Assembly (NCBI GenBank): GCA_035289645.1
Contig: DATDWL010000004.1
Location: forward strand, 29,614 to 93,613
Direction: 5' to 3'
From: Candidatus Peribacterales bacterium
GTDB lineage: Bacteria > Patescibacteriota > Gracilibacteria > Peribacterales > Peribacteraceae
Length of the DNA stretch: 64,000 nt
How positions within the stretch are numbered: position 1 is the stretch's first letter; every line of letters begins with the position of its first letter. The notes below the pieces were generated by a model. It was given only the letters and a program-made list of their open reading frames with translations. It was not told the origin of the DNA and did no database searches. The position numbers and the translations under genes were made by a program. Below are positions 13,289 to 59,607 of this stretch, one piece after another.

Positions 13289-13366
13289 GTTAGACCCTCC
13301 TTCGCTCCTCGTTCCACTCGGAGCTTCGGACGGGCAGGCGATGGGGCCGTGGAATGAAAATGAACA
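13289..13366 (-). pseudogene. Duplicated tRNA-Glu 5' fragment plus upstream flank, interrupted by a 44-bp micro-element
   Basis: gttaga|cgatggggccgt(a/g)gaatgaaaatgaaca repeats 13217-13250, with 13295-13338 inserted. Confidence 0.75.
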
Positions 13367-13412
13367 AGTGGATTATACATCGTCGCCATCCCTCCGTGGA
13401 GAAAAAAGGGCT

Positions 13413-13988
13413 ATGATTCCAGCTGTGATTCTTGCAGATATCGTCCTTGTCGGCATTTTGATCCTCACGGTCATTCTGCTTGTCACCATGCTCACAAGCC
13501 TGTTTCTTTTTGTCCCCTACGTCCCAACGCCAAAAGCAGTGGTGGAATTCATGCTGGAAAGGGCAAATCTCAGCGGAAATCAAACAGTGTACGATCTTGG
13601 ATGCGGGGATGCGAGGCTGTTGATTGCCGCAAAAAAACGATGTCCGAGCATTCGCGCAATAGGGTACGAATTGCCGCTTGGAATATGGCTTCTTGCCAAA
13701 ATAAAAGTATTTCTCTCACGAAAGAATATTACTGTTCGGCTCGGTAATTATCTCCATGGGGATCTCCATGATGCTGATGTGATTTTTTTGTACCTTGTAC
13801 CGGAGGTGATGGGAAAATTGGTGAAGAAATTGGAAAAGGAACTCAAGCCCGGCACGCGCATAATCTCGCATGGGTTTGAATTGCCGGGACGATCACCAAA
13901 GAGCGTCGAACGATGTTCTCTCCCTTCGTGGCACCTCTTTAGGCCAAAGGGGAAGGTGGGGCCGCGGGTGTTTGTGTATGAGTGGTGA
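13413..13988 (+). CDS. Membrane-anchored class I SAM-dependent methyltransferase
   Basis: VPYVPTP, VYDLGCGDARLL, ADVIFLYL, ELKPGTRIISH.F. Confidence 0.88.
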   Translation: MIPAVILADIVLVGILILTVILLVTMLTSLFLFVPYVPTPKAVVEFMLERANLSGNQTVYDLGCGDARLLIAAKKRCPSIRAIGYELPLGIWLLAKIKVFLSRKNITVRLGNYLHGDLHDADVIFLYLVPEVMGKLVKKLEKELKPGTRIISHGFELPGRSPKSVERCSLPSWHLFRPKGKVGPRVFVYEW

Positions 13989-15510
13989 GGAATGGAATAC
14001 ATAAGAAGAGGATGAGCACCTCATAGTATCCCAACACATACACTCCGCTTACCCCTGCAATATTCATCGATGCATAAGGAAGATTAGAAAGAAATTGCGC
14101 AATGTTGATGACAAGCTCCAGCGCTCCGAAGCCGGGATATGCGATGAATCGCCCGAGGGGCTCCGAAAAGAAACCGACGAGCGTCCCAAGGAACCCAAAA
14201 AGCATCGCGAATGGAATGAGTGGAGCAACAAGCAAGTTCGCCAGTGGCGCAACGAGGCTGAATTTTCCGAAGAGGAGAATAACGAGCGGCACTGCGGAAA
14301 ATTGAGCAGCAAGAGTCATCGTGAGCGATTCGCGAATGCCGAGGAACACAGGGAAGAACTTCATCGGATGCTCGAGAAACGGCGACAAATACGCAAGCCC
14401 CAAAACCGAGAGGAATGAGAGTTGGAACCCGGCATCGTACCAAAGCATTTTTGGATTCCATGCGGCCATAAGCGCCGCAGTGAGGAGAATCACAATGAGA
14501 GAATGTTTCTCCCGCCCGACGTGGAGCGCAAAGAGCCCGAGCATCCCCATGAGTGCCGCACGGACAACAGATGGCGAAGCGCCAACAAAGAGTGTGAAAA
14601 AGAGAATGGCAAGAAAGGAAGGAAGAAATCTCCACTTGAGTGGCAGAAAGAAGAGCGATCCCGCGATCACTGCAATGACAATCGCAATGTTGTAACCACT
14701 GATCGCGATGATGTGCGTGAGCCCGGTTGCCTGAAAATCTTTGAGCAGGTGATCTGGAATCCCCCGCCGTGATCCTGTGAGGAGCCCCGCCATCAATGAA
14801 GCATGTGGCTCGGGCAGGAGACGATTGAGTGTGTATTCGAATCGGCTTTTGAGGTGATAGAGAAATGAAAAGAAACGAGAGCCATGCCCTGTGCTCAATG
14901 TCTCGATCTCTGCACGGTAGATCACGGCATAAATCCCATAGCGCGAGAGGTAACGATCGTAGGCGAAATCTTCGATCTGTGTCGGCTTTTCCAAGATTCC
15001 GGTGACGATGACTTCGTCCCCGTAGGCATGGAGTGGATAGAAGGCGTGATCGGTGACGAGGATTTTCCCATGTACTCGTAGGGACTCCATATAGGGCATC
15101 TCTACGATACCATTTATCTCATCCACCTCCACAACATACTTCGTCTTCATAGGCCGACGGTCCGGCTCATCGCTGATATAGCCATGAAGCATAACGCGCG
15201 GAAGATTGCCCTCCTTTGCATCGTGAGGACGATCAATGGCAAAAGAATCAACGGACTCGACGCTTGGAATGTGCGTCGTCTGCGAGACACGGAGGAATGC
15301 ACATACCGTACCAATGATAATGCACAAAAAAAGAAAGGCGATATTTGATCGTGCAATCAAACCAACACTTAAAAAGACGACGGCCGAAAGCAAAAGAATA
15401 ATCCAGATCTCTGCAGGAAACCGAGGCACCTGCCACCACTGGAGCGCTGCTGCCACGGCAAGGAATGTGAGGAAAAGCGCTATCGTGTACCAAGACTTTG
15501 GGATACCCAT
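13939..15510 (-). CDS. comEC: ComEC/Rec2 competence channel (no MBL domain)
   Basis: TGLTHIIAISGYN, PSVVRAALM, DAGFQLSF. Confidence 0.92.
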   Translation of the reverse strand: MGIPKSWYTIALFLTFLAVAAALQWWQVPRFPAEIWIILLLSAVVFLSVGLIARSNIAFLFLCIIIGTVCAFLRVSQTTHIPSVESVDSFAIDRPHDAKEGNLPRVMLHGYISDEPDRRPMKTKYVVEVDEINGIVEMPYMESLRVHGKILVTDHAFYPLHAYGDEVIVTGILEKPTQIEDFAYDRYLSRYGIYAVIYRAEIETLSTGHGSRFFSFLYHLKSRFEYTLNRLLPEPHASLMAGLLTGSRRGIPDHLLKDFQATGLTHIIAISGYNIAIVIAVIAGSLFFLPLKWRFLPSFLAILFFTLFVGASPSVVRAALMGMLGLFALHVGREKHSLIVILLTAALMAAWNPKMLWYDAGFQLSFLSVLGLAYLSPFLEHPMKFFPVFLGIRESLTMTLAAQFSAVPLVILLFGKFSLVAPLANLLVAPLIPFAMLFGFLGTLVGFFSEPLGRFIAYPGFGALELVINIAQFLSNLPYASMNIAGVSGVYVLGYYEVLILFLCIPFLTTHTQTPAAPPSPLA

Positions 15511-15562
15511 AAAGGGATGGACTGTAGCACGAGCATGCTTGGAACGTCACCCGGAGGATGGA

Positions 15563-17002
15563 TCAATACGCCTTCGCCCACAGAACCATTTCCTTCGCCG
15601 GCTTGCCTGAGTACATATCCACCATACCTTCCGCAGAAGGGCGCTCGGGGAGGAGCACGCGGATTGTTGCCTTCGTTTCCTTCTGCACTGCCTCGGCAGT
15701 TTCCACCGTACCATCCCACGGTGCCCAGATAAAGCCGGGTTTTTCTTCGAGTGTTTTTTTAAACTCATCGTAGGTCTCGACCGACGAAGTCTGATCCTCC
15801 ATAAACTGAAGCGCCTGATCGTAGAGATTTTCCTGCACAAGATCGAGCAGATTGGTAATGGCCAGCGCATCGCGTGCGGCATCGATGAGCATGTGTTCTT
15901 TTTCGCCGGTGTCGCGGCGAACGATCGTAACTTGTTTCTTCTCGATATCCTTCGGACCGATTTCGACTCGCAGCGGCACGCCTTTTACTTCCCACTCCGC
16001 GAATTTGAATCCCGGCCGTTTGCCATCGCGGCTATCGATGTGAACTCGAATCCCCTGCCCGCCCCATGCTGCTGCAAGATCTGCAGACGCCGCGAGTACG
16101 ATGTCTCGCTCGGCATCCGATTGATAGATTGGGACGATGACAACTTGGATCGGCGCAACCGCCGGAGGAAGACGCAAACCTTTTTCATCGCCATGAACAA
16201 CGATAATCGTCCCGATGAGCCGTGTGGAAACTCCCCAGCTCGTCATCCATGGGCGCTGCTCCTTTTGATTTTCATCAAGGTACGAAACGCTGTACGACTC
16301 CGAAAATCCTTGCCCGAGATTATGGGAAGTACCGGCTTGAATCGCTTTGCCATCGCGCGCCAAGGCTTCGGTTGTGAGCGTGTACAAGGCACCCGCAAAT
16401 TTATCGTGTTCTGGTTTTCGTCCATGGATCACAGGGAGTGCGAGCACATCGCGATCGAAATCCGTGTACATCTGGAGCGCCGCTTCCGCCATTTCATCCG
16501 CATCTTCCTTCGTCGCATGCACGGTATGACCCTCCTGCCAGAGGAATTCAAGCGTTCGCAGGAACGGGCGCGTGCGCATTTCCCACCGCACCACATTCGC
16601 CCACTGATTGATTTTTATGGGGAGATCGCGATACGAACCGACCCACTTTGCAAACGTTTGGTAGATGATCGTTTCCGAGGTCGGACGAATGTAGAGCTTC
16701 TCCGCAAGTTCTTTGCCGCCGCCATGCGTGACAACTGCGCACTCCGGAGCAAATCCCGCCACATGATTCGCCTCCTTTGCCATCACACTTTCTGGAATGA
16801 GGAGCGGAAAATACGCATTCTGCACGCCAAGATCTTTGATCCTCGCATTCAGCTCCTGCTGCATCATTTCCCAAATCGCATAACCATAGGGTTTAAAGAT
16901 GATACATCCCTTTACCGGCGCATACTCCGCAAGATCCGCCTGCTCGACGACATCCAAATACCACTGGGGGAAATCGTCTTTTTGGGAAGCAAGTTTAGAC
17001 AC
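15563..17002 (-). CDS. proS: Proline--tRNA ligase (archaeal/eukaryotic type)
   Basis: IRPTSET, QWANVVRWE, EFLWQEGHT, QAGTSHNLG, C-terminal AKAY. Confidence 0.96.
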   Translation of the reverse strand: MSKLASQKDDFPQWYLDVVEQADLAEYAPVKGCIIFKPYGYAIWEMMQQELNARIKDLGVQNAYFPLLIPESVMAKEANHVAGFAPECAVVTHGGGKELAEKLYIRPTSETIIYQTFAKWVGSYRDLPIKINQWANVVRWEMRTRPFLRTLEFLWQEGHTVHATKEDADEMAEAALQMYTDFDRDVLALPVIHGRKPEHDKFAGALYTLTTEALARDGKAIQAGTSHNLGQGFSESYSVSYLDENQKEQRPWMTSWGVSTRLIGTIIVVHGDEKGLRLPPAVAPIQVVIVPIYQSDAERDIVLAASADLAAAWGGQGIRVHIDSRDGKRPGFKFAEWEVKGVPLRVEIGPKDIEKKQVTIVRRDTGEKEHMLIDAARDALAITNLLDLVQENLYDQALQFMEDQTSSVETYDEFKKTLEEKPGFIWAPWDGTVETAEAVQKETKATIRVLLPERPSAEGMVDMYSGKPAKEMVLWAKAY

Positions 17003-17049
17003 TTGTACTGAGGGAAATGAAGTATGGGACTAGCATACAGCATGACGTA

Positions 17050-17490
17050 TCATGTACTGAGCCAAACACCTACCCACGTCACTACCGCCCCAAACACAAT
17101 TCCACCGAGAACTTCGATGAAGGAATGACCCACGCGAGTTTGGAACCTCTGCCAATGCTGGAGACGATTGAGAACTTCTGCCTGCAAACCGATCTCGCGG
17201 CGCGAGTTCATGGCATCGTAAAAAATGATGACGGCAAAAACCGCTGCGATCGCAAATTCCACGGAATCGAGTCCCGCCTTTTGCCACACGATGAAGAGGA
17301 GTGATGTCACAAACGCGGCATGCGAACTTGGGAATCCACCGGAGTGAAAGAAGGCATCGTAATCAACATGACCTTTCTTAAACGATGCAACGGTAAGTTT
17401 GGCAAACTCGCAGAGAAACCCAACGACAATCGGAATGAGGAAGATGTAGACAGAGAGGAGCGAGAGTGCGGTGTGGGAGGAGAGGGGCAT
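17050..17490 (-). CDS. Divergent PAP2 family protein (DUF212)
   Basis: SGGFPSSHAA, YDA...RR..G.QA..LN, GHS..EV.GG. Confidence 0.88.
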   Translation of the reverse strand: MPLSSHTALSLLSVYIFLIPIVVGFLCEFAKLTVASFKKGHVDYDAFFHSGGFPSSHAAFVTSLLFIVWQKAGLDSVEFAIAAVFAVIIFYDAMNSRREIGLQAEVLNRLQHWQRFQTRVGHSFIEVLGGIVFGAVVTWVGVWLST

Positions 17491-17498
17491 GGGAACGA

Positions 17499-17590
17499 GT
17501 TTGTTAGGTGTGTTAGGTTTATTAGGTTAGTGAGGTTCGATCAATCAACCTAACCCACTTAACCTACCTAACTCACCTAACGTACCAAAC
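17499..17590. repeat. Inverted pair of degenerate 9-mer tandem arrays
   Basis: gtttgttag gtgtgttag gtttattag gttagtgag ... aacctaacc cacttaacc tacctaact cacctaacg. Confidence 0.75.
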
Positions 17591-17633
17591 ATCATCCCAC
17601 AATCACAACTCTCCCCCTGCTACACTCTCACCC

Positions 17634-18188
17634 ATGATCCACATCCCCTCCCGCCTCGAGGAACGGCTGAAGAAGGTTTTCCCACGGGCCAAAGATCGTG
17701 AGGATTTCGTCAAAGACGCAGTGACGCAGGCACTCGAAGGGATTGAACGAACAGGTATGGATACCCTGCCCCAGGCAGTCGGCGGTACGCTCCACCTTTT
17801 TACGGATGGTGGATCGCGCGGGAATCCCGGGGAGTCGGCAATCGGCTGCGTCCTCGTGGATCCACTCACGGGAAAAGTACTGAAGGAACATAGCGAGACG
17901 ATCGGGGTTCAAACCAATAACGTCGCAGAGTATCGCGCGCTCATTGCAGGGCTTACACTGGCCAAAAATTTTCGTCCGAATCGGCTTGTATGCCATCTGG
18001 ATTCCGAGCTCATCGTCAAACAGCTCTCCGGCGCCTACAGAGTAAAAATGCAGACACTCCAGCCCCTGCTCGAGGAAATCCAAGAACTGCAGCAGGAGTT
18101 TGGGGAAGTGAGCTTTTCCCACATTCCTCGGGGGGAGAACAAACGCGCCGATCGGTTGGTGAACGAGGCGCTCGATGGTTTGAGGTAA
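17634..18188 (+). CDS. rnhA: Ribonuclease HI family protein with a short N-terminal extension
   Basis: FTDGGSRGNPG, TNNVAEY.ALI.GL, DSELIVKQ, HIPR..NKRAD.L.N. Confidence 0.9.
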   Translation: MIHIPSRLEERLKKVFPRAKDREDFVKDAVTQALEGIERTGMDTLPQAVGGTLHLFTDGGSRGNPGESAIGCVLVDPLTGKVLKEHSETIGVQTNNVAEYRALIAGLTLAKNFRPNRLVCHLDSELIVKQLSGAYRVKMQTLQPLLEEIQELQQEFGEVSFSHIPRGENKRADRLVNEALDGLR

Positions 18189-18195
18189 GATAGGA

Positions 18196-18273
18196 GTGTC
18201 ATGCTAAGCGAAGTGCCGCGAACATCGTGCCTCGTCTTTATCGCACTCCGCGCGATTTCAATCGATATGACAC
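18196..18273. repeat. Degenerate, internally deleted type A element overlapping the start of the VanW-family gene
   Basis: gtgtcatgctaagcgaagt ... gtgcctcgtctt ... atgacac. Confidence 0.6.
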
Positions 18274-25723: not shown

Positions 25724-26144
25724 ACTTTTCTCGAGCGAGTGAATCCGCCTTTGGCGGATGAACGAGTCGAGAGACAAACCGATGGTACACTGCATTCCTT
25801 ATGTCCACTGGACCCTATTACCTCTACATCATCGAATGTAGTAATGGAAAATACTACACAGGATCGACATCGAATATAGAAAAGCGATGGAAAGAGCACT
25901 GTGATGGGATGGGATGTACCTACACACGGAAATATCCACCAAAAAAACTTGCCTTTGTAAAAGAATTTCAAAGTATCTTTGAAGCTCGTGACAAGGAGAA
26001 GCAAGTGAAAGACTGGAGTCAGGAGAAAAAAAGGAAACTCATTACTGGAGAATGGGAGTAAATGACAAGTCTCTCGACTGCCCGTCACTTACATACATTA
26101 CCTCCATCGTCGGTCACATGTGATATGGATCGCTCGAGAAAAGT
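25724..26144. mobile_element. Putative mini mobile element: GIY-YIG gene between two inverted type B palindromic arms
   Basis: 15-bp perfect terminal IR acttttctcgagcga (25724-25738) / tcgctcgagaaaagt (26130-26144); 11-bp inner IR agtcgagagac (25765-25775) / gtctctcgact (26069-26079). Mobility is inferred. Confidence 0.7.
25801..26061 (+). CDS. Small GIY-YIG nuclease (UPF0213-like)
   Basis: YLYIIECSNGKYYTGST..IEKR..EH..G.G..YT.KY.P......EF.....A...EKQVK.WS..KK..LI. Confidence 0.92.
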   Translation: MSTGPYYLYIIECSNGKYYTGSTSNIEKRWKEHCDGMGCTYTRKYPPKKLAFVKEFQSIFEARDKEKQVKDWSQEKKRKLITGEWE

Positions 26145-26165
26145 TTTGTGTGGCATCAAATTAAT

Positions 26166-26975
26166 TCATCGCGCAGCCGAAGCATCGCAAATCCGCCGAA
26201 ACGGACATATCCTGCATTTCTCACGACTTGGCGTAGGAGCGTAGTCTTTCGAAGAAATCCGCTCAGTGAGGAGACTGATCGATTTTGCAGCGGTATGAAG
26301 CTCCCCTTCTCCGCGCGTTGTCGTCACTTCGACAAGACCTTCCTCCACAAGAAAGAGCATCGTGAGCTCGCTCACCTTTTTGCCAAACGCTTGCTCCGCT
26401 GCGATCGCATACACGCTGAGTTGCAGATCTTGATCGACCTCGGACTGAGAACGCATACTACCCGTTTTAAAATCGATGATACGGAGAGTGCTATCGGGAA
26501 GCTCTTCGATACGATCAAACCTTCCTGTGATGACATTATTGTCATCATGATCGATTGCCATTTTAAATCCCTTCTCCACCGCTACGACCTTCCTCCCCTC
26601 TCGCTTCCACCACTCAAAGAATTTTACGAGCAGCCTCTCGCCACGCGCACGATCAAAATCCACAGCAACTGTGGAATCGTAGCCGGCGATGACGAAGGAT
26701 TCACGCCACAATTCATGTAAGCGGTGAGCGGAAAGCAGGACGCAGTGAGCAGACTGAACACCGCTCTCTTCAAACAAGGTCGTTTGGCTATTAATCGCTA
26801 ATCGCTCTTCGCTTACCGCTTGTTCAATTTTCCCCCATTTTGAAAGGCACGAATGCATACTCACCCCAAAACATCCCTCCGGCGTTAGCGGAGCTTTGAG
26901 TTTTTTGATGAACTCGTACTCGAACTTACGTGGGCAACTGCGAAACGCAGAGAGCTGGGAATAACTGAAAGGCAT
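26166..26975 (-). CDS. PD-(D/E)XK nuclease (RecB/AddB/Cas4-like, 4 Cys)
   Basis: SYSQL..F..CPRK, GRFDRI, IIDFKTG, QL..YA, CRICPFRRIC. Confidence 0.9.
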   Translation of the reverse strand: MPFSYSQLSAFRSCPRKFEYEFIKKLKAPLTPEGCFGVSMHSCLSKWGKIEQAVSEERLAINSQTTLFEESGVQSAHCVLLSAHRLHELWRESFVIAGYDSTVAVDFDRARGERLLVKFFEWWKREGRKVVAVEKGFKMAIDHDDNNVITGRFDRIEELPDSTLRIIDFKTGSMRSQSEVDQDLQLSVYAIAAEQAFGKKVSELTMLFLVEEGLVEVTTTRGEGELHTAAKSISLLTERISSKDYAPTPSREKCRICPFRRICDASAAR

Positions 26976-38798: not shown

Positions 38799-41120
38799 GT
38801 GCCAGCGAATCTCGTCATTGTGGAATCTCCTGCAAAGGCAAAAACCATTAAAAAATTTCTTGGGAAGGATTTCGCCGTGGAAGCAAGCATGGGTCATGTG
38901 CGCGATTTGCAGGAGAAAAAATTGAGCGTCGATGTGAAGAATAATTACGAGCCGACCTACGAAATTCCCGAGGGGAAAAAAACAGTGATCAAAAATCTAC
39001 AGAAAGCGATGAAGACTGCCGAGCACCTCTGGATCGCGACTGATGAAGACCGCGAAGGGGAGGCAATCGGTTGGCATCTTCTCCACGCGCTCAAAGTGCC
39101 GGTGAAGGAACATAAGAGCGTCAAACGCATCGTCTTCCACGAGATCACGAAGGAAGCGATCGAAGCAGCGATAGGAAACCCGCGCACGATTGATCAAAAA
39201 CTCGTAGAGGCGCAGCAAGCACGGCGCATTCTCGATCGCTTGGTGGGGTACACGCTCTCGCCATTCCTCTGGGCGAAAGTATACCGAGGCCTTTCGGCAG
39301 GCCGCGTGCAATCTGTTGCCGTGCGGATTATTGTGGATCGCGAGAAGGAGATTCAAGCATTCAAATCAGATGAATACTGGACGATTGATGCGGAACTGCA
39401 AACGAGTGGTAAAGAAATTTTTCAAGCATCACTCACAAAGCTCAATGGAAAAAAGTACGTACCGGACAACGAGAAGGATGCAACAGCCGTAGTCGAAGCG
39501 GTGCAGGGGAAAAAGTTTTCCGTCCACGAGATCGAAGAAAAGAAGGTGCAGAAAAATCCTTCTCCTCCGTACACAACGTCCACTCTCCAGCAGGATGCTT
39601 CGAATAAACTTGGCTTCTCGGTAAAGCAAACCATGGTCGTCGCCCAGCAACTCTACGAAGGCGTGAACCTTGGGAAGGGCGAGGGGCAGACCGGTCTCAT
39701 CACCTACATGCGTACGGATTCCGTGAATTTGAGCGCGAAGGCTCTCACCGATTCCGAAGAGATGATTCAGAAACTCTTTGGACGCGAATATATTTTAAGC
39801 AAGCCCCGCACGTTCCAAACGAAAAGTAAAAATGCACAAGAGGCCCACGAAGCGATTCGTCCAACAGAGCTCCACAGAACGCCCGAAAGTCTTGCCGGAG
39901 TGCTCGATGATCCTCAACTCAAACTCTATACGCTGATCTGGAAGCGAACGATGGCAACGCAAATGCCCGCAGCGGAATTGAAGCGCGTGGGAGCCGATAT
40001 TGCCGCCGCGGAGTATATGTTTCGCGCAACGGGACAGACGGTGGAATTTGATGGGTATTTGAGGGTGTATGAAGAAGAGGATGATACCCAGAGCTTAGGT
40101 GAAAAATTCCTCCCCAAGCTTGCAGAGGGACAGGAACTCACGTGCACCGGAATACTGCCGGAGCAGCACTTCACTCAGCCGCCGGCTCGCTACACAGAGG
40201 CTTCACTCGTGAAGAAGTTGGAAGAAGAAGGCATCGGCCGTCCGAGCACCTATGCTCCAACGATCAGTACCGTTCAACAGCGCGGCTATATTCGGAAAGA
40301 TGGAAGACAGCTCATTCCAGAAACCGTCGCATTTACGGTCACCGATCTTTTGATCGCGCACTTCCCCGATATTGTCGACCTCAAATTCACCGCCAAAGTC
40401 GAGGACTCGCTCGATGAAATCGCAACGGGAAAAGTGGAATGGGTACCCTTTATGGATTCATTTTTTAAACCGTTTAGCGCCCTCATCGAAAAAAAGAAGG
40501 AGGAAGTAAAGAAGGAAGATGTCCTCAAAGAAGCAATTCTTGGCAACGATCCGAAGACCGGATTCGAAGTCATCGTGCGCACGGGAAGATTCGGCAACTA
40601 CGTGCAGCTTGGTCGGCCGGAAGATTACAAAGGCACCAAGAATAAGCCGAAGAGTGCATCACTCCCGAAAGGTATCGTGAAGGAAGAGGCAACGCTCGAG
40701 CAGGCGCTGTCGCTCCTCAGCTTCCCAAGAATCCTCGGGGAAAAGGATGGTCAGGATGTCTCGGCAAATCTTGGCCGCTTTGGTCCGTATCTGCGGTGGG
40801 GAACAGTGACAGTCACGCTGCCGCCCGAGGTCGATCCCACACATGTGACGCTTCAGGAGGCTGAAACATTGATTGCAGAAGCAGCGGAGAAGCGGAAGCA
40901 AATGGCTGAACCAATCCAGAAGCTTGGCGCTGATCCAACGAGCAGTGGAGAAATTCTGGTGAAGACCGGCCGCTACGGGCCGTACGTCACCGATGGCAAA
41001 ACGAACGCATCGCTTGGGAAGAAATTTGATCCGAAGACTCTCACCCGTGACGAAGCAATCGAGATCTTGGTAAAAAAGCGCGCCCGCGGTCCCGGAAGAA
41101 AATGGGGGAAGAAGAAGTAA
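38799..41120 (+). CDS. topA: DNA topoisomerase I
   Basis: LVIVESPAKAKTI, ATDEDREGE, SAGRVQS, ITYMRTDS, GRFGPY C-terminal repeats. Confidence 0.97.
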   Translation: MPANLVIVESPAKAKTIKKFLGKDFAVEASMGHVRDLQEKKLSVDVKNNYEPTYEIPEGKKTVIKNLQKAMKTAEHLWIATDEDREGEAIGWHLLHALKVPVKEHKSVKRIVFHEITKEAIEAAIGNPRTIDQKLVEAQQARRILDRLVGYTLSPFLWAKVYRGLSAGRVQSVAVRIIVDREKEIQAFKSDEYWTIDAELQTSGKEIFQASLTKLNGKKYVPDNEKDATAVVEAVQGKKFSVHEIEEKKVQKNPSPPYTTSTLQQDASNKLGFSVKQTMVVAQQLYEGVNLGKGEGQTGLITYMRTDSVNLSAKALTDSEEMIQKLFGREYILSKPRTFQTKSKNAQEAHEAIRPTELHRTPESLAGVLDDPQLKLYTLIWKRTMATQMPAAELKRVGADIAAAEYMFRATGQTVEFDGYLRVYEEEDDTQSLGEKFLPKLAEGQELTCTGILPEQHFTQPPARYTEASLVKKLEEEGIGRPSTYAPTISTVQQRGYIRKDGRQLIPETVAFTVTDLLIAHFPDIVDLKFTAKVEDSLDEIATGKVEWVPFMDSFFKPFSALIEKKKEEVKKEDVLKEAILGNDPKTGFEVIVRTGRFGNYVQLGRPEDYKGTKNKPKSASLPKGIVKEEATLEQALSLLSFPRILGEKDGQDVSANLGRFGPYLRWGTVTVTLPPEVDPTHVTLQEAETLIAEAAEKRKQMAEPIQKLGADPTSSGEILVKTGRYGPYVTDGKTNASLGKKFDPKTLTRDEAIEILVKKRARGPGRKWGKKK

Positions 41121-41123
41121 CCG

Positions 41124-41229
41124 CTTTTCTCGCCTGCCCGCCGAGGTGGGAGCGAGTGCTGAGCGAGTCCGCCTTTGGCGGACGAGTCGAAGAACGAGTC
41201 GAGAGACGGTGCAATCTCGCTCGAGAAAA
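41124..41229. repeat. Composite type B element with a nested inner arm and an 18-bp micro-element
   Basis: ttttctcg[cctgcccgccgaggtggg]agcgagt gctgagcg...agtcgaag aacgagtcgagagac ... ctcgctcgagaaaa. Confidence 0.85.
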
Positions 41230-41767: not shown

Positions 41768-42223
41768 ATGCAGCTCTCGCACCTTCGTGGCCGCAAGATT
41801 GTTGATCGCGTACGCAGTAAAGGCGCACGTTTTCGCGGAAAACACATGAATATCACATATGTCATGGGAATGCCTCGCACGACAATGGGGAAGAACCTCT
41901 CGACTCACTCATCCTTCGACGGACGCTACGCGTCCGCTCAGGATTCGTTCGCTCCCACCTCGGTGGGCAGGCAAGGAAAGCATTTTTTCGTCGGCACCAC
42001 CGCTTCCACCAAGCTCGATAAATCTGCAGTGAGGAGAAATCGCATGCGTCGACGCTGCCGTGAAGCACTCAGACTTACTGCGAAAGAACGACAAAAATTA
42101 CCTGTATGCCAATTGCTCATCTCGCCGCGTTCCTCTAGCCTAGATTGCGCATTCCAAGAGCTCCAGCGCGATGCGGTGGAATTTCTTACGTCGCTGGAGA
42201 AGACGCATATACACCGTTCGTAA
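41768..42223 (+). CDS. rnpA: Ribonuclease P protein component, with a roughly 28-aa repeat-derived insert
   Basis: VG...STKLDKSAVRRNRMRRRCREA (RNR motif); position between rpmH and yidC. Confidence 0.92.
   Translation: MQLSHLRGRKIVDRVRSKGARFRGKHMNITYVMGMPRTTMGKNLSTHSSFDGRYASAQDSFAPTSVGRQGKHFFVGTTASTKLDKSAVRRNRMRRRCREALRLTAKERQKLPVCQLLISPRSSSLDCAFQELQRDAVEFLTSLEKTHIHRS
41896..41981 (-). repeat. Composite type B arm inside rnpA
   Basis: Reverse complement gctttccttg[cctgcccaccgaggtggg]agcgaacga atcctgagcg...gtcgaaggat gagtgagtcgagagg. Confidence 0.85.
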
Positions 42224-48285: not shown

Positions 48286-49377
48286 ATGCACGCCTTCATC
48301 CTCGCCGGTGGATTTGCCACACGACTGTGGCCGCTCACGGAAAAGAGAGCAAAGCCTCTCTTGCCGCTTGCGGGGGTTCCTCTCCTCACCCATCTTGTCG
48401 AAAAGATTCCTGCAGGAATTCCAATCACAGTGAGTACGAATGCAAGATTTGCAGAGGATTTTGAGGAGTGGAAACATTCACGTCATGCTGAGCGGAGTGA
48501 AGCTTCGCAGAGCGAAGCGGAACGAAGTCGAAGCACGTCGCAAGGATCAGAAGAATCAGCACCGAACTCAATGCGAGATGCTTCGACTCCGCCCTTGCAG
48601 GGCTCCGCTCAGCATGACGTATCTATACTTATTGAAGACTCCGGCCACGAAGATGAAAAATTGGGAGCACTCGGCGCTGTTGCAAAATGGATCGTGGAGG
48701 AAAAAATCGATGATGATGTTCTGCTCCTCGCAGGGGATAACTACATGGGATTTTCGATTGCATCGTTCATTGAACGCTTCACGGGGAAACCTCTCCTTGC
48801 CGCATACGATATTCGATCAAAGGAAGCGGCAAAAAAGTTCGGCATTGTTCTTACGGAGAACTCATCGAATGCATCCGGGACAATTCGTGTAACGGGATTC
48901 CAAGAAAAACCGGCGGAGCCTCAATCGACTCTCATTTCCACTGGATGCTATTTGCTTCCTGCGGAATCGCTCCAAGAGCTCATGAGTTTTTCTCAATCGC
49001 ATCCCGATAACATCGGTGGTGTCTTCGAGCATTTCCTCAGCGAAGGAACGGAAGTGGAATGCGTCTCCTTTGGAGAACCGTGGTTTGATATCGGATCATT
49101 CGACGCATATTTGGAAGCAACAAAAGTTCTCGTGGGAGAGCGGGTGCTGCGCGGGGAAAAAACTCTCGAGCGCGATACGGAGTTCCACGGGAGCAATGTC
49201 ATCGGCGATAACTCCAAAATCGCCCGATCAACGCTCACGAACGTCGTACTGTTTGAACACTGCGAGGTGGAAGACTGCGTGCTCGAAAACTGCATCGTGG
49301 ATGATGGATGCATCCTGCGTGGGGTGGATTTGAGCGGAAAGATGCTACGGGCTGGAACACACCTTGTGCAACGTTAG
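48286..49377 (+). CDS. NDP-sugar pyrophosphorylase (nucleotidyltransferase), with a roughly 47-aa insert
   Basis: ILAGGFATRLWPLT...AKPLLP, AGDN, FQEKP, WFDIG, C-terminal hexapeptide repeats. Confidence 0.92.
   Translation: MHAFILAGGFATRLWPLTEKRAKPLLPLAGVPLLTHLVEKIPAGIPITVSTNARFAEDFEEWKHSRHAERSEASQSEAERSRSTSQGSEESAPNSMRDASTPPLQGSAQHDVSILIEDSGHEDEKLGALGAVAKWIVEEKIDDDVLLLAGDNYMGFSIASFIERFTGKPLLAAYDIRSKEAAKKFGIVLTENSSNASGTIRVTGFQEKPAEPQSTLISTGCYLLPAESLQELMSFSQSHPDNIGGVFEHFLSEGTEVECVSFGEPWFDIGSFDAYLEATKVLVGERVLRGEKTLERDTEFHGSNVIGDNSKIARSTLTNVVLFEHCEVEDCVLENCIVDDGCILRGVDLSGKMLRAGTHLVQR
48480..48620. repeat. Complete type A arm pair inside the nucleotidyltransferase gene
   Basis: 18-bp perfect IR acgtcatgctgagcggag / ctccgctcagcatgacgt; inner agtcgaagca / tgcttcgact. 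Confidence 0.92.
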
Positions 49378-49378
49378 C

Positions 49379-49556
49379 TACGTCATGCTGCCTGCCCTCC
49401 GGAGCAAGAGCGAAGGTGGGAGCGGAGCCCCGAGCTCGGCGAGAGGCGAAGTCGAAGCACCTCGCTAGGCTTACACCATTTCAGAAATCGCGACGTGCTT
49501 CGACTTCATCCTACGCATCCTAAACGGATGCTCCGGATTTCGCTCAGCATGACGTA
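49379..49556. repeat. Intergenic type A arm pair with a 30-bp micro-element in the left end
   Basis: tacgtcatgctg[49391-49420]agcgga...gaagtcgaagcac ... gtgcttcgacttc...cgctcagcatgacgta. Confidence 0.9.
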
Positions 49557-49612
49557 TTTGGTGTAGTTTCTGCGTTTCCTTCCATCCATTTTCCACTTAC
49601 ACTGTCCCAGAC

Positions 49613-53707: not shown

Positions 53708-53735
53708 TTGACATGCCACAAAAAATGTATAGAAT
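53708..53735 (+). promoter_or_regulatory. Sigma70-type promoter
   Basis: TTGACA (53708-53713), 16-nt spacer, TAGAAT (53730-53735). Confidence 0.6.
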
Positions 53736-54055: not shown

Positions 54056-54421
54056 ATGTATATGAGGATTGTCTTTTCGAAGCAGATGTTTGATGAGTGC
54101 GGATACATTATGGATCGCCTATCTCGGAACAAATCCCAGCCTTTCAAAGTAAAGGGGTTCAGTCGAAAAATTGAGGTTATGGTTATCGACGAATCGGATG
54201 ACGATCTCTTGAGCAGAGTCGGAGCAAGTCTTGATGGTGTTATTCTTCTCAAAACTGCATCCAGTAGCGAACAAGCGTTCAATCTACGAAATCTACTAAG
54301 AAGAGATGGCCCGATTCCATACCTCTTTTATTCAGGGAATTTGAAGGATGAGGAAAAAATGGCGCTCCACAAGTTTGCGCTCACCCTGATGGGATCAAGA
54401 CAAGTCTTCAGAGGGTATTAA
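54056..54421 (+). CDS. Hypothetical protein
   Basis: 121-aa ORF preceded by AGGAG. Confidence 0.5.
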   Translation: MYMRIVFSKQMFDECGYIMDRLSRNKSQPFKVKGFSRKIEVMVIDESDDDLLSRVGASLDGVILLKTASSSEQAFNLRNLLRRDGPIPYLFYSGNLKDEEKMALHKFALTLMGSRQVFRGY

Positions 54422-54446
54422 GTTTCTCTAGCATAAGGAAAAGATC

Positions 54447-54650
54447 ATGAAGCCTACGACTGACTTACAAACTGCCTTCTTTTGCATCATCGTCGATGCA
54501 AATGCCACAACAAATCTGCAGGATCATGCTGAAGAGCATGGTTCTGGTGCGTGGGGTTGGGAAGATAGTGACGATGACGATTATGATCCTGGTATGTGGG
54601 GTTGGGGAGATAGCGGTGACTGTGGAGAGGGGCCTGGCCTGAACTGGTGA
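54447..54650 (+). CDS. Small acidic Gly/Trp-rich peptide
   Basis: 67-aa ORF preceded by TAAGGA; G.WGW.DS.D occurs twice. Confidence 0.45.
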   Translation: MKPTTDLQTAFFCIIVDANATTNLQDHAEEHGSGAWGWEDSDDDDYDPGMWGWGDSGDCGEGPGLNW

Positions 54651-54700
54651 AGGCGAGACACCGATTCTACATGATATTAGTTAGATCGATCACACACGTT

Positions 54701-54738
54701 ACCCCGAGTCCGTCATGCACGGATTCGGGGTTTTTCTT
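54701..54738 (+). terminator. Rho-independent terminator
   Basis: accccgagtccgt-catgc-acggattcggggt followed by ttttctt. Confidence 0.7.
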
Positions 54739-55067
54739 ATACCCCTCCATCAAATGCGGAGAGCGTGTGGCACGGCATACCCGAGACTTAACATTAATCA
54801 CGGAGACATCTAATTCGAATAATGATCTCCGAGGTAGGCCGTGCAGAGCCAGATTGTCCCAAAGCGTAGATGGTGTTGTCTCTGCACGGGCCACATCGGA
54901 GATACAAGACCACGATGAAGTGCTGAAAAACTATATCTCCACTTTCGTGTGTCCCGTGACACACTTCATCAATCTTCCACGATGGGCTGTTAAAAAACAT
55001 CAATAAATCCCAAAAACTATCATTCCTCTATCTCGTGCCCGTGCCATACGCGCTACACTGCTCTTCC

Positions 55068-55676
55068 ATGCCGCAATTCAATGCTCACGTCCGGCAAGGA
55101 GCATATCTGCCCCACTGGACGAAGGAGGGGGCAACGTACCATGTGCGATTTCGACTGGCAGATTCGATGCCGCAGCACATCCTGAAGGAATGGCAGGAGG
55201 AAAAGAAGGAACTCCTGCTCAAAAGAGAGCAGAAAAAGGGAGGGCTTACAAAATCAGAGGAGGAGAGACTCCGTGAACTCTCATCCGAAAAAGTTGAGCA
55301 CTATTTGCATCAAGGATATGGCGCCTGTTTTCTCAGGCAGGATCTTGTTGCTAAGATTGTTGCAAATGCTTTACGAAAGAACGATGGAAAACAATACCGT
55401 CTTATCGCATGGTGCATCATGCCAAATCATGTGCATGTTATTCTCACTCCACTGACTCAGGAACTCCATCGAATTGTGAACACATGGAAAAGTGCATCCG
55501 CACGGAAATCAAACAGATTTCTCAAACGAGCAGGAGCATTTTGGCAAACTGAATACTTCGATCATTTGATCAGAAATGAGGAGAACTTCCATCATGCAAT
55601 CGAATACGTCTGGAATAATCCTACCGAAGCTGGCTTAAAAGAATGGAAATGGCGATGGAAAGCAGAAGAGTATTGA
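55068..55676 (+). CDS. REP-associated tyrosine transposase (RAYT)-like HUH Y1 transposase
   Basis: LPHW...GATY.V.FRLADS, WCIMPNHVH (HUH), FWQ.EYFDH.IR, Y..NNP. Confidence 0.9.
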   Translation: MPQFNAHVRQGAYLPHWTKEGATYHVRFRLADSMPQHILKEWQEEKKELLLKREQKKGGLTKSEEERLRELSSEKVEHYLHQGYGACFLRQDLVAKIVANALRKNDGKQYRLIAWCIMPNHVHVILTPLTQELHRIVNTWKSASARKSNRFLKRAGAFWQTEYFDHLIRNEENFHHAIEYVWNNPTEAGLKEWKWRWKAEEY

Positions 55677-55680
55677 TTAA

Positions 55681-56199
55681 TCACATCCCCTCGTTGATTT
55701 TGACGATCCGTACCTTGCGAGCCTCGTCCCTCGGAACGAAAATCTTTAGGACATTATCGCGACTGAATGTGGCACGGACTTTGGCAGGATTCACCGTGCA
55801 CGGGAGAGTCACCTTGCGCTCAAAATCGCCAAAGTAGCATTCACGGAGGATGTACTGCGCATCATCAACGACATCGGTCTGCTCTCTGCGGCCACGGATC
55901 GTGACGACATTCTCCGCAACATCGATATCAAGATCCCCCAGTTTTACCCCTGCAATCGGCGTCCGAATGATGAAGTATCCATCTTCCTCGAAGATATCGA
56001 CGGCAATTTGGCCTTTTTTCAATTGAATCGAAGTGCCTTCCTCCGCAAGCACGCTGTCATCATCCAAAACGGGGATAGAGGAAACTTCCCGTTTTAAAGC
56101 CGAGGAAACTCCACCAAGATTGGATGATTGCTCTTTGAGGAGCGCGCCGAAGATACCGTGCATTCGCGAATTCGCCATAGCGTGGTCATAAGGGTACAC
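55681..56199 (-). CDS. Hsp20/alpha-crystallin small heat shock protein
   Basis: AVDIFE, IAGVK, TIRG.R, ECYFGDFER.V.LP..V, VLKI.VP. Confidence 0.9.
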   Translation of the reverse strand: MYPYDHAMANSRMHGIFGALLKEQSSNLGGVSSALKREVSSIPVLDDDSVLAEEGTSIQLKKGQIAVDIFEEDGYFIIRTPIAGVKLGDLDIDVAENVVTIRGRREQTDVVDDAQYILRECYFGDFERKVTLPCTVNPAKVRATFSRDNVLKIFVPRDEARKVRIVKINEGM

Positions 56200-56366
56200 A
56201 AAGAAGAACAGGCAAACAAGGCATTTTGAATGAACGAGGGCGAGTGGGTTATGATCGATGATGAAATGATGATGGAGTACGAGCGGAAGAAATCACACTG
56301 CACCATAGAATCTTTATTTCGGAAACTGGCGATGAGAGCATAAACCGCCGAAACTCTCGGCTATAC

Positions 56367-57662
56367 ATGAGCTTCTACGACGCATTCATTCTTGGCATCC
56401 TGCAGGGAATGATGGAATTCCTTCCCATCAGTTCCAGTGGCCACTTGGTGCTTATGGAGCGATACCTCGGACTCAGTCTTGCGCCGGATGTTCTTTTGCA
56501 CTTCGACATTGCGCTTCATGGGGGATCGTTTATTGCTCTCCTTCTGTACTTTGGGAAAACATGGCTCGCGATTCTCCGATCGCCGTTCAAGCGGCAAAAT
56601 GATGGAGGCCCACCACTCCTCTTCCTCCTTGTCATTGGAACGGTTCCTGTTGGTATCGCAGGGTTCTTCGGAATAGATTGGATTATCGAGAATACGCGTG
56701 GAGCGCTCTTTGTCGCATTCGGCTTTATTTTTACCGGCGCCTTTCTCATCCTTTCCTCTTGGTTCGAATCTCGCTTTGCCGCGCGGGAAGGATTCGGATG
56801 GAAACAGGTAATCGGAGCAGGCATTGGTCAGGCTATTGCTGTATTCCCCGGCTTCTCTCGTTCTGGCATAACCCTCGCAAGCGGTCGGTTTATGGGACTC
56901 ACGGCAAGGAGTGCCACCGAGCTTTCGTTCCTCCTTGGGACGCCAGCCCTCGCTGGCGCACTCATACTCAGTCTCGCCGAAGGCAAAGATATGCTCACGA
57001 TCGTTGGTTCACTCCAAGTTCTTATTGGATTCACCGCAAGCCTCTTTGTCAGCCTTGCAGTCATCCATCTCTTCCTCATGACCGTCCGACGCTTTGGCGT
57101 ATGGCTCTGGGCTGCATATCTTTTCGTCGCAGCCGTCCTTATCCTCGCGGATGAGATGTTGCCACTCATCACAGCGCTCCCCCACATTATGGACAAGGTG
57201 GATGTTCCGGTTGTTGCCGGGGTGATTTTTATTGCCATGCTGCTCTCCTCTGCACCTTTTACATCGTTCTTCGTACCAAGTGCCGCAACACTCGCTGCCG
57301 CAACACTTTTTTTCCGGAATGAACCCATGAATATTGTTGCAATGATTCCGATTGCCAGTGTTGGAATGATTTTAGGAAATCTCCTCGGCTACATTCCGGC
57401 ACGACAGGCTCGCATGGTGATTCGGTGGAGCGAAGATGCGGACGAGCGACTGACACGCATTCAACATTTTTTCCGTAAGTGGGGAATTGCCACAGTCATC
57501 ATTGGGGAATTCTCCGCCTTCCTCCGTCCATGGATTGCGATTGCGGCAGGCATCGGCAACATGCGCCCACTCCCGTATGTTCTCAGCATGATCGTAGGAT
57601 CCATCGCTCTTGTTTGTGGCATCATCGGTATCACTGCTGCTCTCGAAAAAGTTATCTTTTGA
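56367..57662 (+). CDS. uppP: Undecaprenyl-diphosphatase UppP/BacA fused to a C-terminal DedA-like domain
   Basis: LGILQG..EFLPISSSGHL, PGFSRSG.T; C-terminal FFVPS, GNLLGY, FF.KWG, LRP....AAG...M. Confidence 0.88.
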   Translation: MSFYDAFILGILQGMMEFLPISSSGHLVLMERYLGLSLAPDVLLHFDIALHGGSFIALLLYFGKTWLAILRSPFKRQNDGGPPLLFLLVIGTVPVGIAGFFGIDWIIENTRGALFVAFGFIFTGAFLILSSWFESRFAAREGFGWKQVIGAGIGQAIAVFPGFSRSGITLASGRFMGLTARSATELSFLLGTPALAGALILSLAEGKDMLTIVGSLQVLIGFTASLFVSLAVIHLFLMTVRRFGVWLWAAYLFVAAVLILADEMLPLITALPHIMDKVDVPVVAGVIFIAMLLSSAPFTSFFVPSAATLAAATLFFRNEPMNIVAMIPIASVGMILGNLLGYIPARQARMVIRWSEDADERLTRIQHFFRKWGIATVIIGEFSAFLRPWIAIAAGIGNMRPLPYVLSMIVGSIALVCGIIGITAALEKVIF

Positions 57663-57765
57663 TATTGATTGAATAGATTATTATTACGCCCTTACTCAAC
57701 ATTCCTAGCCTACCAAACCTACTTAGCTCAATTCACCTCCCTAATCCCAGCCCTACCCCCACTTC

Positions 57766-59607
57766 ATGCCCCTCCTCCATCCGCGCTCCATCGTCATCCT
57801 CGACTTCGGCGGGCAGTATGCGCACCTCATTGGGAACCGTGTGCGCAAGCTCGGAGCGTTTTCGGAAATCCATGATCCGGAAATCTCCGCAACCGAACTG
57901 AAAGGCGCTGCCGGCATTATCCTCTCCGGCGGTCCGCAGAGCGTGTATGACCCGAACTCGCCAAAAACAGATCCAAAAATTTTTGACCTTGGCATCCCCG
58001 TCCTCGGCATCTGCTACGGCCACCAGTGGATGGCGCAGGCACTCGGCGGCGAAGTACATGAAGGAAAAATGAAGGAGTACGGCTACAGTGAAATTCAAAT
58101 AGTGGAAAAGGGTGGCGCACTCTTCGATGGACTCAAGACTGATTTTACCGTCTGGATGTCACATGGGGATGAAGTCACCAGACTTCCCGCAGGATTTGTA
58201 AAAACAGCGACTTCGGAGATCTGCACTATCGCCGCAATGGCCGATGAAAAGCGAAAATTCTTCGGTGTGCAATTTCATCCGGAAGTCGCACACACCGAAA
58301 ACGGATTGGAGATTCTTCGGAGGTTTCTTGATTACTGTAATGCAGCCCACTGGGAACTGAGTAACGTGCTCGATCATCTGGAAAAAGAGATTGAAGCAGA
58401 AACAAAAGGCCGCAATGTCTTCATCCTAGTTTCCGGCGGCGTAGATTCCACCGTGGCATTCGCCCTGCTCAATAAGACACTGGGGGTCGATCGTGTGTAC
58501 GGCCTCCTCATCGATCACGGACTCATGCGTAAAGGGGAAATGCACGAAATCGCAGATTCATTCGCAGAGCTCGGATTCACCAATCTCCATATCGAGGATG
58601 CTTCCGCGCAATTTCTGGAGAAGTTGAAGGGGATCACGGATCCCGAACAGAAGCGTCAACTCATTGGTGATACGTTTCTGGCGGTACAAGCGGAAGTGGC
58701 GAAACGCCTCAATTTGGATGGACCCCAATGGATGCTCGGACAGGGAACAATTTATCCCGATACCATCGAAACCGGCGGCACCAAACATGCCGATCATATT
58801 AAAACCCACCACAACCGCGTCGCAGCAATCGAAAAAATGATCGCGGAGAAAAGAGTGATAGAGCCGCTGAAGGAACTGTATAAAGATGAAGTGAGGGTTG
58901 TCGGCGAAAGCCTCGGACTCCCGCACCACCTCGTGCATCGGCATCCGTTTCCGGGACCCGGTCTTGGGGTACGCATCCTCTGCGCTCAAAAACCATCACC
59001 GCTTACGAAGAAGGAAGAAGATGAGATTGCCGTCGATTCAAAAATCTATGTCTTCCGTTCCCTTCCCATCCTCTCTGTTGGAGTACAGGGTGATAGCAGA
59101 AGCTACAAACATCCACTTGCCGTCTTCCTCCAAAAACCATTTTCGGATCTCCGTTCTATACACGGACTTGCAACGGCAATCCCCAACACCCACAAACAGA
59201 TTAATCGAGTTCTCGTTTGTGTTTCCCATCAGAAGGTTCCGGAATTCATCTTCACGCCCACCACAATCACCCGTGATCTCGCAGAGACGCTGCGCGAGGC
59301 AGATCACATTGTGAGTCGAGAAATGCGTGAAGAGGGATTGGAGGATAAGATCTGGCAATTTCCGGTTATCCTGATCCCCATTGGAGTAAAAAAAGAGGGA
59401 CGACTTGCCGGCTGCAGCTCGACGAGCGAAGGCCGGTCAATTGTGCTCCGCCCAGTGGAATCGCAGGAAGCCATGACGGCAAATGCATTCCACTTGACCG
59501 AAAAGTTCCTCGTGCGCGTGACGAAGAAAATCCTCGAAATCGAGGGGATTGATATGGTGTTTTATGACGTCACGAATAAGCCGCCCGCAACAATTGAGTG
59601 GGAATAA
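57766..59607 (+). CDS. guaA: GMP synthase (glutamine-hydrolysing)
   Basis: ILDFGGQY, LGICYG, QFHPEV, SGGVDS, IKTHHN, RHPFPGPGL, KPPATIEWE. Confidence 0.97.
   Translation: MPLLHPRSIVILDFGGQYAHLIGNRVRKLGAFSEIHDPEISATELKGAAGIILSGGPQSVYDPNSPKTDPKIFDLGIPVLGICYGHQWMAQALGGEVHEGKMKEYGYSEIQIVEKGGALFDGLKTDFTVWMSHGDEVTRLPAGFVKTATSEICTIAAMADEKRKFFGVQFHPEVAHTENGLEILRRFLDYCNAAHWELSNVLDHLEKEIEAETKGRNVFILVSGGVDSTVAFALLNKTLGVDRVYGLLIDHGLMRKGEMHEIADSFAELGFTNLHIEDASAQFLEKLKGITDPEQKRQLIGDTFLAVQAEVAKRLNLDGPQWMLGQGTIYPDTIETGGTKHADHIKTHHNRVAAIEKMIAEKRVIEPLKELYKDEVRVVGESLGLPHHLVHRHPFPGPGLGVRILCAQKPSPLTKKEEDEIAVDSKIYVFRSLPILSVGVQGDSRSYKHPLAVFLQKPFSDLRSIHGLATAIPNTHKQINRVLVCVSHQKVPEFIFTPTTITRDLAETLREADHIVSREMREEGLEDKIWQFPVILIPIGVKKEGRLAGCSSTSEGRSIVLRPVESQEAMTANAFHLTEKFLVRVTKKILEIEGIDMVFYDVTNKPPATIEWE
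59404..59436 (+). repeat. 33-bp micro-element in frame in guaA
   Basis: cttgccggctgcagctcgacgagcgaaggccgg resembles 49391-49420; removing it gives EGR|SIVLRPVES. Confidence 0.65.

Follow-up and report, generated by a model that had tools for sequence, protein, structure and literature searches.

Tagged hairpin micro-elements that split larger repeats, tRNA duplicates and coding genes in Candidatus Peribacteria are probably mobile

Peribacteria are tiny groundwater bacteria of the Candidate Phyla Radiation (CPR). Here we describe a tagged hairpin DNA repeat resembling repetitive extragenic palindromes (REPs), which we call the C element, in a 64,000-nucleotide stretch from a Candidatus Peribacterales bacterium (assembly GCA_035289645.1, contig DATDWL010000004.1, positions 29,614 to 93,613). 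This stretch, referred to as the window, corresponds to C4:29614-93613 of the study genome G000 (1.17 Mb, 19 contigs, 50% GC). Taken as a whole, and leaving the enzyme aside, the C element is probably a non-autonomous mobile hairpin micro-element, a reading to which we assign a probability of about 0.7. Its architecture covaries, its copies enter their hosts at the same bonds, and element-free counterparts of occupied sites exist. Copies are nested in two larger repeat families (type A and type B) and in one another, some lie in-frame in coding genes, and there is a strong association with partial duplicates of tRNA genes. A first-pass annotation of the window had listed five copies, three of them hosted by type A or type B repeats, and all five can be read as it gave them in position, strand and length:

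13295..13338, minus strand: C element of 44 nt, with CCTG tag, CCC(G)TCC / GGAGGG outer stem, GAA/GAA loop and inner hairpin
41133..41150, plus strand: short C element (18 nt) flanked by TTCTCG and AGCGAG of a type B repeat
About 41120-41207: the type B host of the 41133 copy, just past the topA stop codon
41954..41971, minus strand: short C element (18 nt) lying within a minus-strand type B repeat (about 41896-41971)
49391..49420, plus strand: C element of 30 nt flanked by CATGCTG and AGCG within a type A repeat (49378-49470)
59404..59436, plus strand: C element of 33 nt, CTTG variant (CTTG CCGGCT GCA GCTC-GAC-GAGC GAA GGCCGG), in guaA (57766-59607)

The layout of a tag followed by a hairpin, which had been proposed for these copies, is common to all five. 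In full, a C element consists of a 4-nt tag (CYTG), a GC-rich outer stem of 6 bp, a symmetric 3x3 purine loop in which G-N-A faces G-A-A, and a variable inner hairpin, so that each copy is a single hairpin with one internal loop. In the 18-nt form, the outer stem is closed by GA(G) alone. The length ranges from 18 to 49 nt in the family and from 18 to 44 nt among the window copies. The copy at 59404, which had been listed as a variant, belongs fully to the family and is a genuine in-frame insertion in guaA.

The C family is far larger and older than the five window copies; it is conserved across the bacterial family and its stems covary. For the covariation analysis, 48 distinct copies were compiled, 26 from G000 and 23 from five other genera, with one sequence in common. 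Their tags were CCTG (33 copies), CTTG (11), CTCG (3) and CCCG (1). The 5' loop was GTA in 31, GAA in 11 and GGA in 4 copies, and the 3' loop was GAA in 36 of the 48. Outer pair 4 was GC (14 copies), AT (8), CG (6), TA (6) or GT (7), with 7 non-pairs, and inner pair 3 was TA in 22 and CG in 19 copies. Five of the six outer positions had to pair for a copy to be selected, so that information lies in the covariation at pair 4 and not in the overall paired percentage.

The bare 7-mer CCTGCCC is not enriched in G000 (126 seen, about 143 expected) and counting the motif alone is therefore useless. The pattern CCTGCCCNCC-N(2-40)-GGNGGG yielded 15 matches in G000 compared with 0 for the reversed pattern. 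A scan for structure alone gave 229 matches versus 122 in the reversed genome, and the commonest 5' tags among these matches were CCTG (11) and CTTG (10), the next tag being found 5 times. A loose census of short and long forms was dropped as non-specific (about 1,675 matches versus 1,522 in the control). In the strict census, which requires both tag and structure and uses the reversed genome as control, 41 copies were counted in G000 versus 4. The claim of a real ultra-small repeat is borne out. The strict census overlooks several copies that are real by eye (C7:211243, C18:25237, a nested pair on C9, the copy upstream of tRNA-Thr(cgt) on C18, C15:56782, C17:387 and C12:65456), and about 4 of its 41 matches look like chance (C7:104282, C7:69913, C15:100296 and C15:25485); the latter were excluded from the strand-bias and covariation analyses. 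Because of these misses and chance matches, we put the family in G000 at roughly 40-50 members.

The C element is specific to Candidatus Peribacteria. Its core pattern is present in 48 of 60 other genera of the same bacterial family (each given a G-number here), with 1-18 matches per genome, and reversed-pattern controls across the 60 genera gave 0-2 matches per strand and at most 4 per genome. Genera that share only about 70% identity with G000 in their coding DNA still retain the consensus CCTGCCCNCCGTAGC..GCGAAGGNGGG. Searches of Rfam returned nothing at gathering score except tRNA, and at E-values up to 10 the region 49360-49570 gave weak matches only (best E 0.028), far under the gathering scores.

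Two larger repeat families act as hosts. Type A reads ACGTCATGCTGAGCG-(variable hairpin)-GAAGTCGAAGCACGTCGC and is present in about 55 copies, type B reads CTTTTCTCGAGCGAG-(hairpin)-GAGTCGAGAGAC and is present in 34. The preferred insertion site is YTG|AGC, between G and A, and this site occurs in the left arm of type A, in type B repeats and on the complementary strand of the tRNA D-arm. The element-free target sequence is CATGCTGAGCG, and the tRNA D-arm is a further empty target. Type A is split at CATGCTG|AGCG by the 49391 window copy and at C7:211243, C13:2258 and C13:185, with the variant CATCCTG at C12:64867, and these five hosts carry at least 3 different inner hairpins. Type B is split at TTCTCG|AGCGA in 10 of its 34 copies, nine times by near-identical 18-nt forms and once by a nested 45-nt form. 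In the strict census (n=41), the 5' flank ends with CTG in 9 and TCG in 8 cases and the 3' flank starts with AGC in 16; the same flanks were found in other genera, including a type A host in G070. Across the type A, type B, tRNA duplicate and guaA sites the junctions are ambiguous by 0-2 nt.

Several statements of the first-pass annotation can be judged from these junctions. Removal of the copy restores the host consensus, as it had proposed, to type A CATGCTG|AGCG for 49391 and to type B TTCTCG|AGCGA for 41133 and 41954. Interruption of a GAGCG motif was confirmed for these three copies but not for the 13295 copy, which splits a tRNA-Glu duplicate between nt 10 and 11. The precise, duplication-free junctions stay so in the larger set: within each kind of host the bond is constant (5 of 5 type A repeats, 10 of 10 type B repeats and seven tRNA duplicates), and no target duplication was seen. 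Both 18-bp window copies, for which shared descent had been suggested, are members of a 10-copy B+C subfamily, in which repeat and element probably spread together. The supposed preference for structured DNA did not hold up in this form; more than structure alone, the preference looks to be for a sequence target, YTG|AGC, which type A, type B and the tRNA D-arm share. As an observation apart, runs of GGTATTA-like heptamers are present in G000 (for example on C17 at about 73,480), and GTATTAGGTA is among its commonest 10-mers, with 32 copies.

Stand-alone CTG|AGCTAA sites correspond to the opposite strand of tRNA D-arms. Seven tRNA genes, namely Pro(ggg), Ile(tat), Gln(ctg), Thr(cgt), Lys(ctt), Thr(tgt) and Trp(cca), are each preceded by a partial duplicate of the tRNA 5' part that is split by a reverse-oriented element exactly at nt 12|13, the strand reading CTG|AGCTA. 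For Arg(cct), the split in the upstream duplicate falls at 19|20. The 13295 copy lies in a duplicate that comprises the tRNA-Glu upstream region and nt 1-16, and here the split falls between nt 10 and 11 on the tRNA strand:

13339..13370, minus strand: duplicated tRNA-Glu upstream region and tRNA nt 1-10 (family D20), which stops exactly at the 5' end of the element
13289..13294, minus strand: TCTAAC, corresponding to tRNA-Glu nt 11-16, with which the duplicate resumes directly after the element
13158..13232, minus strand: intact tRNA-Glu(ttc), which acts as empty site for the 13295 copy

On contig C2, a 92-nt tRNA-Val-like duplicate that is 100% identical to its source carries the element between GTGCGA and TTCACA, and the uninterrupted copy lies 27 nt upstream of the filled duplicate (about 120 nt upstream of the insertion point). 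Nine of the 41 strict matches lie within 200 nt of a tRNA gene called by ARAGORN, compared with 2% of the genome. Copies are enriched in repeat arms and at tRNA genes. Eight of these nine copies are located upstream of the gene. Seven of the nine are antisense to the tRNA; sense orientation was found upstream of tRNA-Glu and, outside the tRNA set, in guaA. The same tRNA-duplicate arrangement is present in G012 and G049. More generally, 16 of the 48 tRNA genes of G000 have a partial self-duplicate (score of at least 11) within 350 nt, and many of these end at nt 12-13. Of 57 scanned copies, 10 had flank-repeat scores above the 99th percentile for random positions, and several more scored above the 95th.

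Some further tRNA loci of G000 are recorded here in their own right. Downstream of tRNA-Gln(ttg) (C7:29795-29922) and tRNA-Ser(gct) (C7:137594-137720), an identical 53-nt type-B-like hairpin is directly followed by a duplicate of the last 18-20 nt of the tRNA, and tRNA-Gly(ccc) (C7:322740-322851) has the same downstream layout with another hairpin. At locus L058 (C2:66560-67169), intact tRNA-Val(cac) is followed by an 84-aa GIY-YIG gene, then by a tRNA-Val-like copy and finally by a 5'-truncated copy. The tRNA-Val-like copy has hairpins in its D-loop and variable loop and is not called by ARAGORN, and the 5'-truncated one contains the 44-nt element.

Coding genes provide occupied and empty sites that can be compared directly. 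The copy in guaA is an 11-codon in-frame insertion encoding RLAGCSSTSEG, with a junction that is ambiguous by 2 nt. It stands alone in the coding sequence, with no A or B host, and is missing in 4 of 4 homologues, including two from Peribacteria at 82% and 72% identity. In rnpA, which encodes the RNase P protein, a type B repeat together with the 18-nt hairpin adds 28 in-frame codons in G000:

41894..41980, plus strand: stretch of rnpA with the in-frame B+C insertion of about 84 nt (28 codons), in open reading frame (ORF) 41768-42223

In G001, a relative from the same genus, the two halves of rnpA are contiguous. Among nine other relatives, seven match both sides with short spacers only, and these spacers measured 4-9 codons in five cases. 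The empty alleles that had been called for exist therefore for guaA and rnpA, and for the tRNA duplicates inside G000. The orthologous intergenic site of the 49391 copy in G001 contains no type A repeat at all, so that no empty/filled comparison is available for this copy.

Independent insertion is supported by four observations. The guaA copy is hostless, different hairpins occupy the same bond, C elements are nested in C elements (C7:301942 and C11:41633), and near-identical copies with a TCCCYC stem are found at five unrelated loci, upstream of tRNA-Thr, tRNA-Cys and tRNA-Pro, downstream of tRNA-Lys and inside another copy. Alternatively, the hairpin might not be mobile by itself but be an optional module of larger repeats or local duplications that spreads passively, through amplification of A+C and B+C units, gene conversion between repeats sharing GAGCG, or tandem duplication. 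A number of findings speak for this and weigh against insertion by the element itself, in part against its current activity. Type B was the only host of the 18-bp form, and most 30-bp forms lay in type A; such a pattern fits a small number of insertions, after which element and host repeat were amplified together. The B-hosted 18-nt form in particular looks like one event and subsequent spread of B+C. Identical copies in G012, G047 and G072 have long flanks in common, which makes them parts of larger repeats rather than independent insertions, and in G049 a tandem unit of C element plus tRNA 5' piece is present twice. Contigs of four public runs, which are unable to show rare variants, contain no joint that skips a copy and are identical to the window across 41133, 49391 and 59404. 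Passive spread has, however, difficulty with the guaA copy and its four element-free homologues, with seven tRNA duplicates that are split at the same bond by different inner hairpins, with C-in-C nesting, and with a tRNA-Val duplicate that is identical to its source apart from the insertion. As an explanation of the whole family we consider it improbable.

An equally poor prospect is that the hairpin is a selected structural signal and not a parasite, for instance a protein-binding or processing site in RNA or DNA, as in tRNA leaders or at gene ends. Conservation of sequence and structure across 48 genera with compensatory changes would agree with such a role, as would the position of nearly all tRNA-linked copies upstream of the gene, and the 3x3 GNA/GAA loop may plausibly serve as a protein-recognition motif. 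But the orientation to transcription is inconsistent, copies are found within reading frames and other repeats, there is no matching Rfam family, and the closest relative lacks repeats at the orthologous intergenic site. Three further candidates were set aside. A hammerhead-like ribozyme was considered for type A, but its core motif is absent by eye and there is no Rfam match. An integron attC-like site has a similar two-stem layout, but the C element is too small. An attP/attB integrase footprint does not fit, as the element lies within one duplicate copy and not between copies.

If the C element is mobile, a trans-acting protein would recognise its folded single strand, and insertion would be a clean cut-and-join reaction that leaves no target duplication and falls mainly between the G and the A of YTG|AGC. 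We know of no class other than the Y1 HUH enzymes that carries out hairpin-guided, site-specific and duplication-free insertion. For this reason a RAYT-like Y1 transposase is kept as the single most likely joining enzyme, although the evidence is mixed, and small GIY-YIG (Ssn-like) nucleases are an equally good candidate. On our estimate neither of them taken alone is likely, their odds being about the same, and an enzyme of some other kind is a somewhat stronger possibility that still falls short of even. The candidate genes in the window and their surroundings are as follows:

55035..55676, plus strand: RAYT-like Y1 (HUH) ORF, candidate catalyst, with no C copy adjoining
25801..26061, plus strand: single-domain GIY-YIG gene of 86 aa, candidate Ssn-like nuclease, with type B repeats on both sides
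25725-25782 (plus strand) and about 26140 (minus strand): type B repeats around the 25801 GIY-YIG gene
10415..10636, minus strand: second small GIY-YIG gene of the window, with no A, B or C repeat within 450 nt

G000 has two RAYT-like Y1 genes, for which the best NCBIfam match is REP_Tyr_transpos with 77.5 and 64.7 bits, below the cut-off of 80. The gene outside the window (C7:222340-223041; L041 1324-2025), which lies directly before leuS, has a C copy 34 nt before its ORF, within a duplicate of the 5' end of der. At this place (C7:222190-222340; L041 1195-1320), the first 29 or so nt of der (engA) including the start codon are duplicated, and a CTTG hairpin splits the spare copy, as at tRNA genes. 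In eight other genera (among loci L047-L057), the Y1 domain is part of an open frame of about 1,000 aa that may be a LeuRS fusion. The first-pass annotation had tied the element to HUH (RAYT) enzymes; this link is weak and not established. A PF01797 (Y1_Tnp) match is present in 37 of the 48 element-bearing genomes and absent from 11, among them G041, which is 99% complete and carries the most copies, and G020. In other genera, a C copy within 700 nt upstream was found at 0 of 11 Y1 loci. Nine of these 11 have a strong GC-rich palindrome 65-160 nt upstream, mostly with GTTAAC/GTTAGC-type feet; the hairpin upstream of Y1 in G000 differs from these palindromes in sequence and is single-copy in that genome. 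The C element is moreover one hairpin and not two ends as in IS200/IS605, and no strand bias relative to local GC skew was detected (12 versus 20, p = 0.22), with contigs that are unordered and a skew that is weak. Many copies are surrounded by short partial duplications with 8-40 nt of filler, which clean HUH transposition would not leave.

Under the competing proposal, the same mobile hairpin would have as its cognate protein a multi-copy single-domain GIY-YIG nuclease (Ssn/UPF0213-like) instead of Y1. Such a nuclease would bind the folded hairpin in single-stranded DNA (ssDNA) and nick nearby, and repair copying would spread the hairpin and leave the tRNA duplications and filler. Eight small GIY-YIG genes, falling into two sequence groups, were found in G000; those outside the window include C2:66828-67079 and C7:314959-315186. 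Three of the four group 1 genes are flanked by type A or type B repeats, like the published SRM-ssnA-SRM layout (PMC11893778), and type A starts with CGTCAT like the NTS repeats described there. The genes bracketed by inverted type B or A repeats include those at window 25725-26176 and at C2:2927-3405. Given this bracketing and the CGTCAT start of type A, the larger repeats are probably Ssn-related motifs. Three of the four group 2 genes have a C-type hairpin within 450 nt (C2:66867, C18:34 and near C17:34). The two GIY-YIG copies at C17:34-243 and C18:34-243 are 99% identical, lie at contig starts and have one in-frame TAG each. In 25 of 29 other genera (L063-L091), a tRNA gene is found no more than 400 nt from the group 2 relative, the neighbouring tRNAs being of many types; the C copies, too, are enriched at tRNA genes.

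All 48 element-bearing genomes have at least 2 GIY-YIG matches, and the only two genomes with a single match are both element-free. However, these genes are nearly universal in the family, so that co-occurrence is uninformative, and their counts correlate with those of the element no better than Y1 counts do (Spearman 0.36 in both cases; Fisher p = 0.08 for Y1 presence, uncorrected for kinship). At the group 2 loci of other genera, a C-type hairpin lies within 400 nt in only 4-5 of 29 cases. The best solved relatives of the proteins are the UPF0213 proteins 1zg2 and 1ywl, and membership in the Ssn clade (cd10448) is putative. We know of no joining activity in the GIY-YIG family, and same-bond precision is hard to obtain from repair. 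The GIY-YIG proposal is possible but, in our judgement, on the unlikely side.

Compared with known systems, the C element works like a tagged REP or an SRM repeat, yet we do not count it as a member. It has neither the GTAG nor the CGTC tag, no REPtron was found, and the two ends of IS200/IS605 are missing. According to Di Nocera et al. (2013; PMC3733652), tagged REPs of the GTAG and CGTC superfamilies are 20-40-nt palindromes with an unpaired conserved end tetranucleotide, some families of which lie inside other palindromes, with some copies in-frame in ORFs and frequent G-T pairs in the stem. The C element shares with the REPs so described the short multi-copy palindrome, the unpaired end tag, insertion in palindromes and ORFs, and G-T pairs. 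In contrast to them, its tag is CYTG, its copy number is in the tens and not in the hundreds per genome, its stems are hypervariable around a conserved 3x3 purine loop, and it has a defined target, YTG|AGC, that includes the tRNA D-arm; in 11 of 11 other genera, no copies border the Y1 gene. Rickettsia palindromic elements, as cited in the same paper (PMC3733652), are about 100-150 bp long and lie in-frame in conserved protein genes. The C element resembles them in being a palindromic repeat in-frame in conserved genes (in guaA alone, in rnpA together with type B), but the sequence is unrelated and the inserts measure 33 nt and about 84 nt.

For the Ssn system, Chenal et al. (2025; PMC11893778) describe single-domain GIY-YIG nucleases that bind oriented hairpin repeats in ssDNA and cut just upstream, and ssn genes that are flanked by their own NTS/SRM hairpin repeats. 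Like the NTS/SRM repeats in that account, the C element is a hairpin repeat of 20-50 nt that has an orientation and whose palindrome is bordered by conserved bases on either side, and multi-copy GIY-YIG genes of 81-94 aa flanked by hairpin repeats are present in the same genome. Unlike them, it starts with CYTG and does not match the consensus CGTCAT + palindrome + ATCYRG; CGTCAT is found only in the host repeat type A. It adjoins GIY-YIG genes only partially, and cleavage, like cd10448 membership, is putative here. The C element inserts in tRNA duplicates and ORFs, and the parts of PMC11893778 consulted do not mention such repeat insertion for NTS/SRM. With the IS200/IS605 family and its hairpin-only derivatives, the C element has in common duplication-free insertion at a short target, a hairpin with a nearby tetranucleotide, and the presence of Y1 genes. 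In the peel-and-paste transposition of IS200/IS605, insertion takes place beside a short specific sequence without target duplication, and the hairpins, near a guide-like tetranucleotide, are located at two distinct ends. The C element differs in being one hairpin of 18-44 nt and in persisting in genomes without a Y1 match.

A full-text literature search found no description of such repeats in CPR bacteria. If the C element is mobile, it would be, at 18-44 nt, among the smallest DNA elements shown to insert site-specifically. Its natural filled/empty pairs may be used to test which enzyme moves tagged hairpin repeats, a question that also concerns the CGTC-type REPs and the newly described Ssn nucleases, and if the cognate protein is found, target and hairpin would be potentially useful for single-stranded DNA tools. 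For the organism, the data indicate that a 1.2-Mb genome tolerates hits in tRNA genes and essential proteins (guaA, rnpA) via short duplications and in-frame inserts. A wider scenario, which we regard as speculative and rather unlikely, is that Peribacteria, and probably other CPR, harbour ultra-small mobile hairpins that home to a hexamer of tRNA D-arms and hairpin repeats. They would be driven by minimal GIY-YIG nucleases amid tRNA copies, and hits in essential genes would be rescued by partial duplications arising in the same event. If such homing were true, it would constitute a new mechanism of insertion that is neither HUH transposition nor integrase-mediated integration, and a route by which tRNA genes and proteins may gain extra arms and loops.

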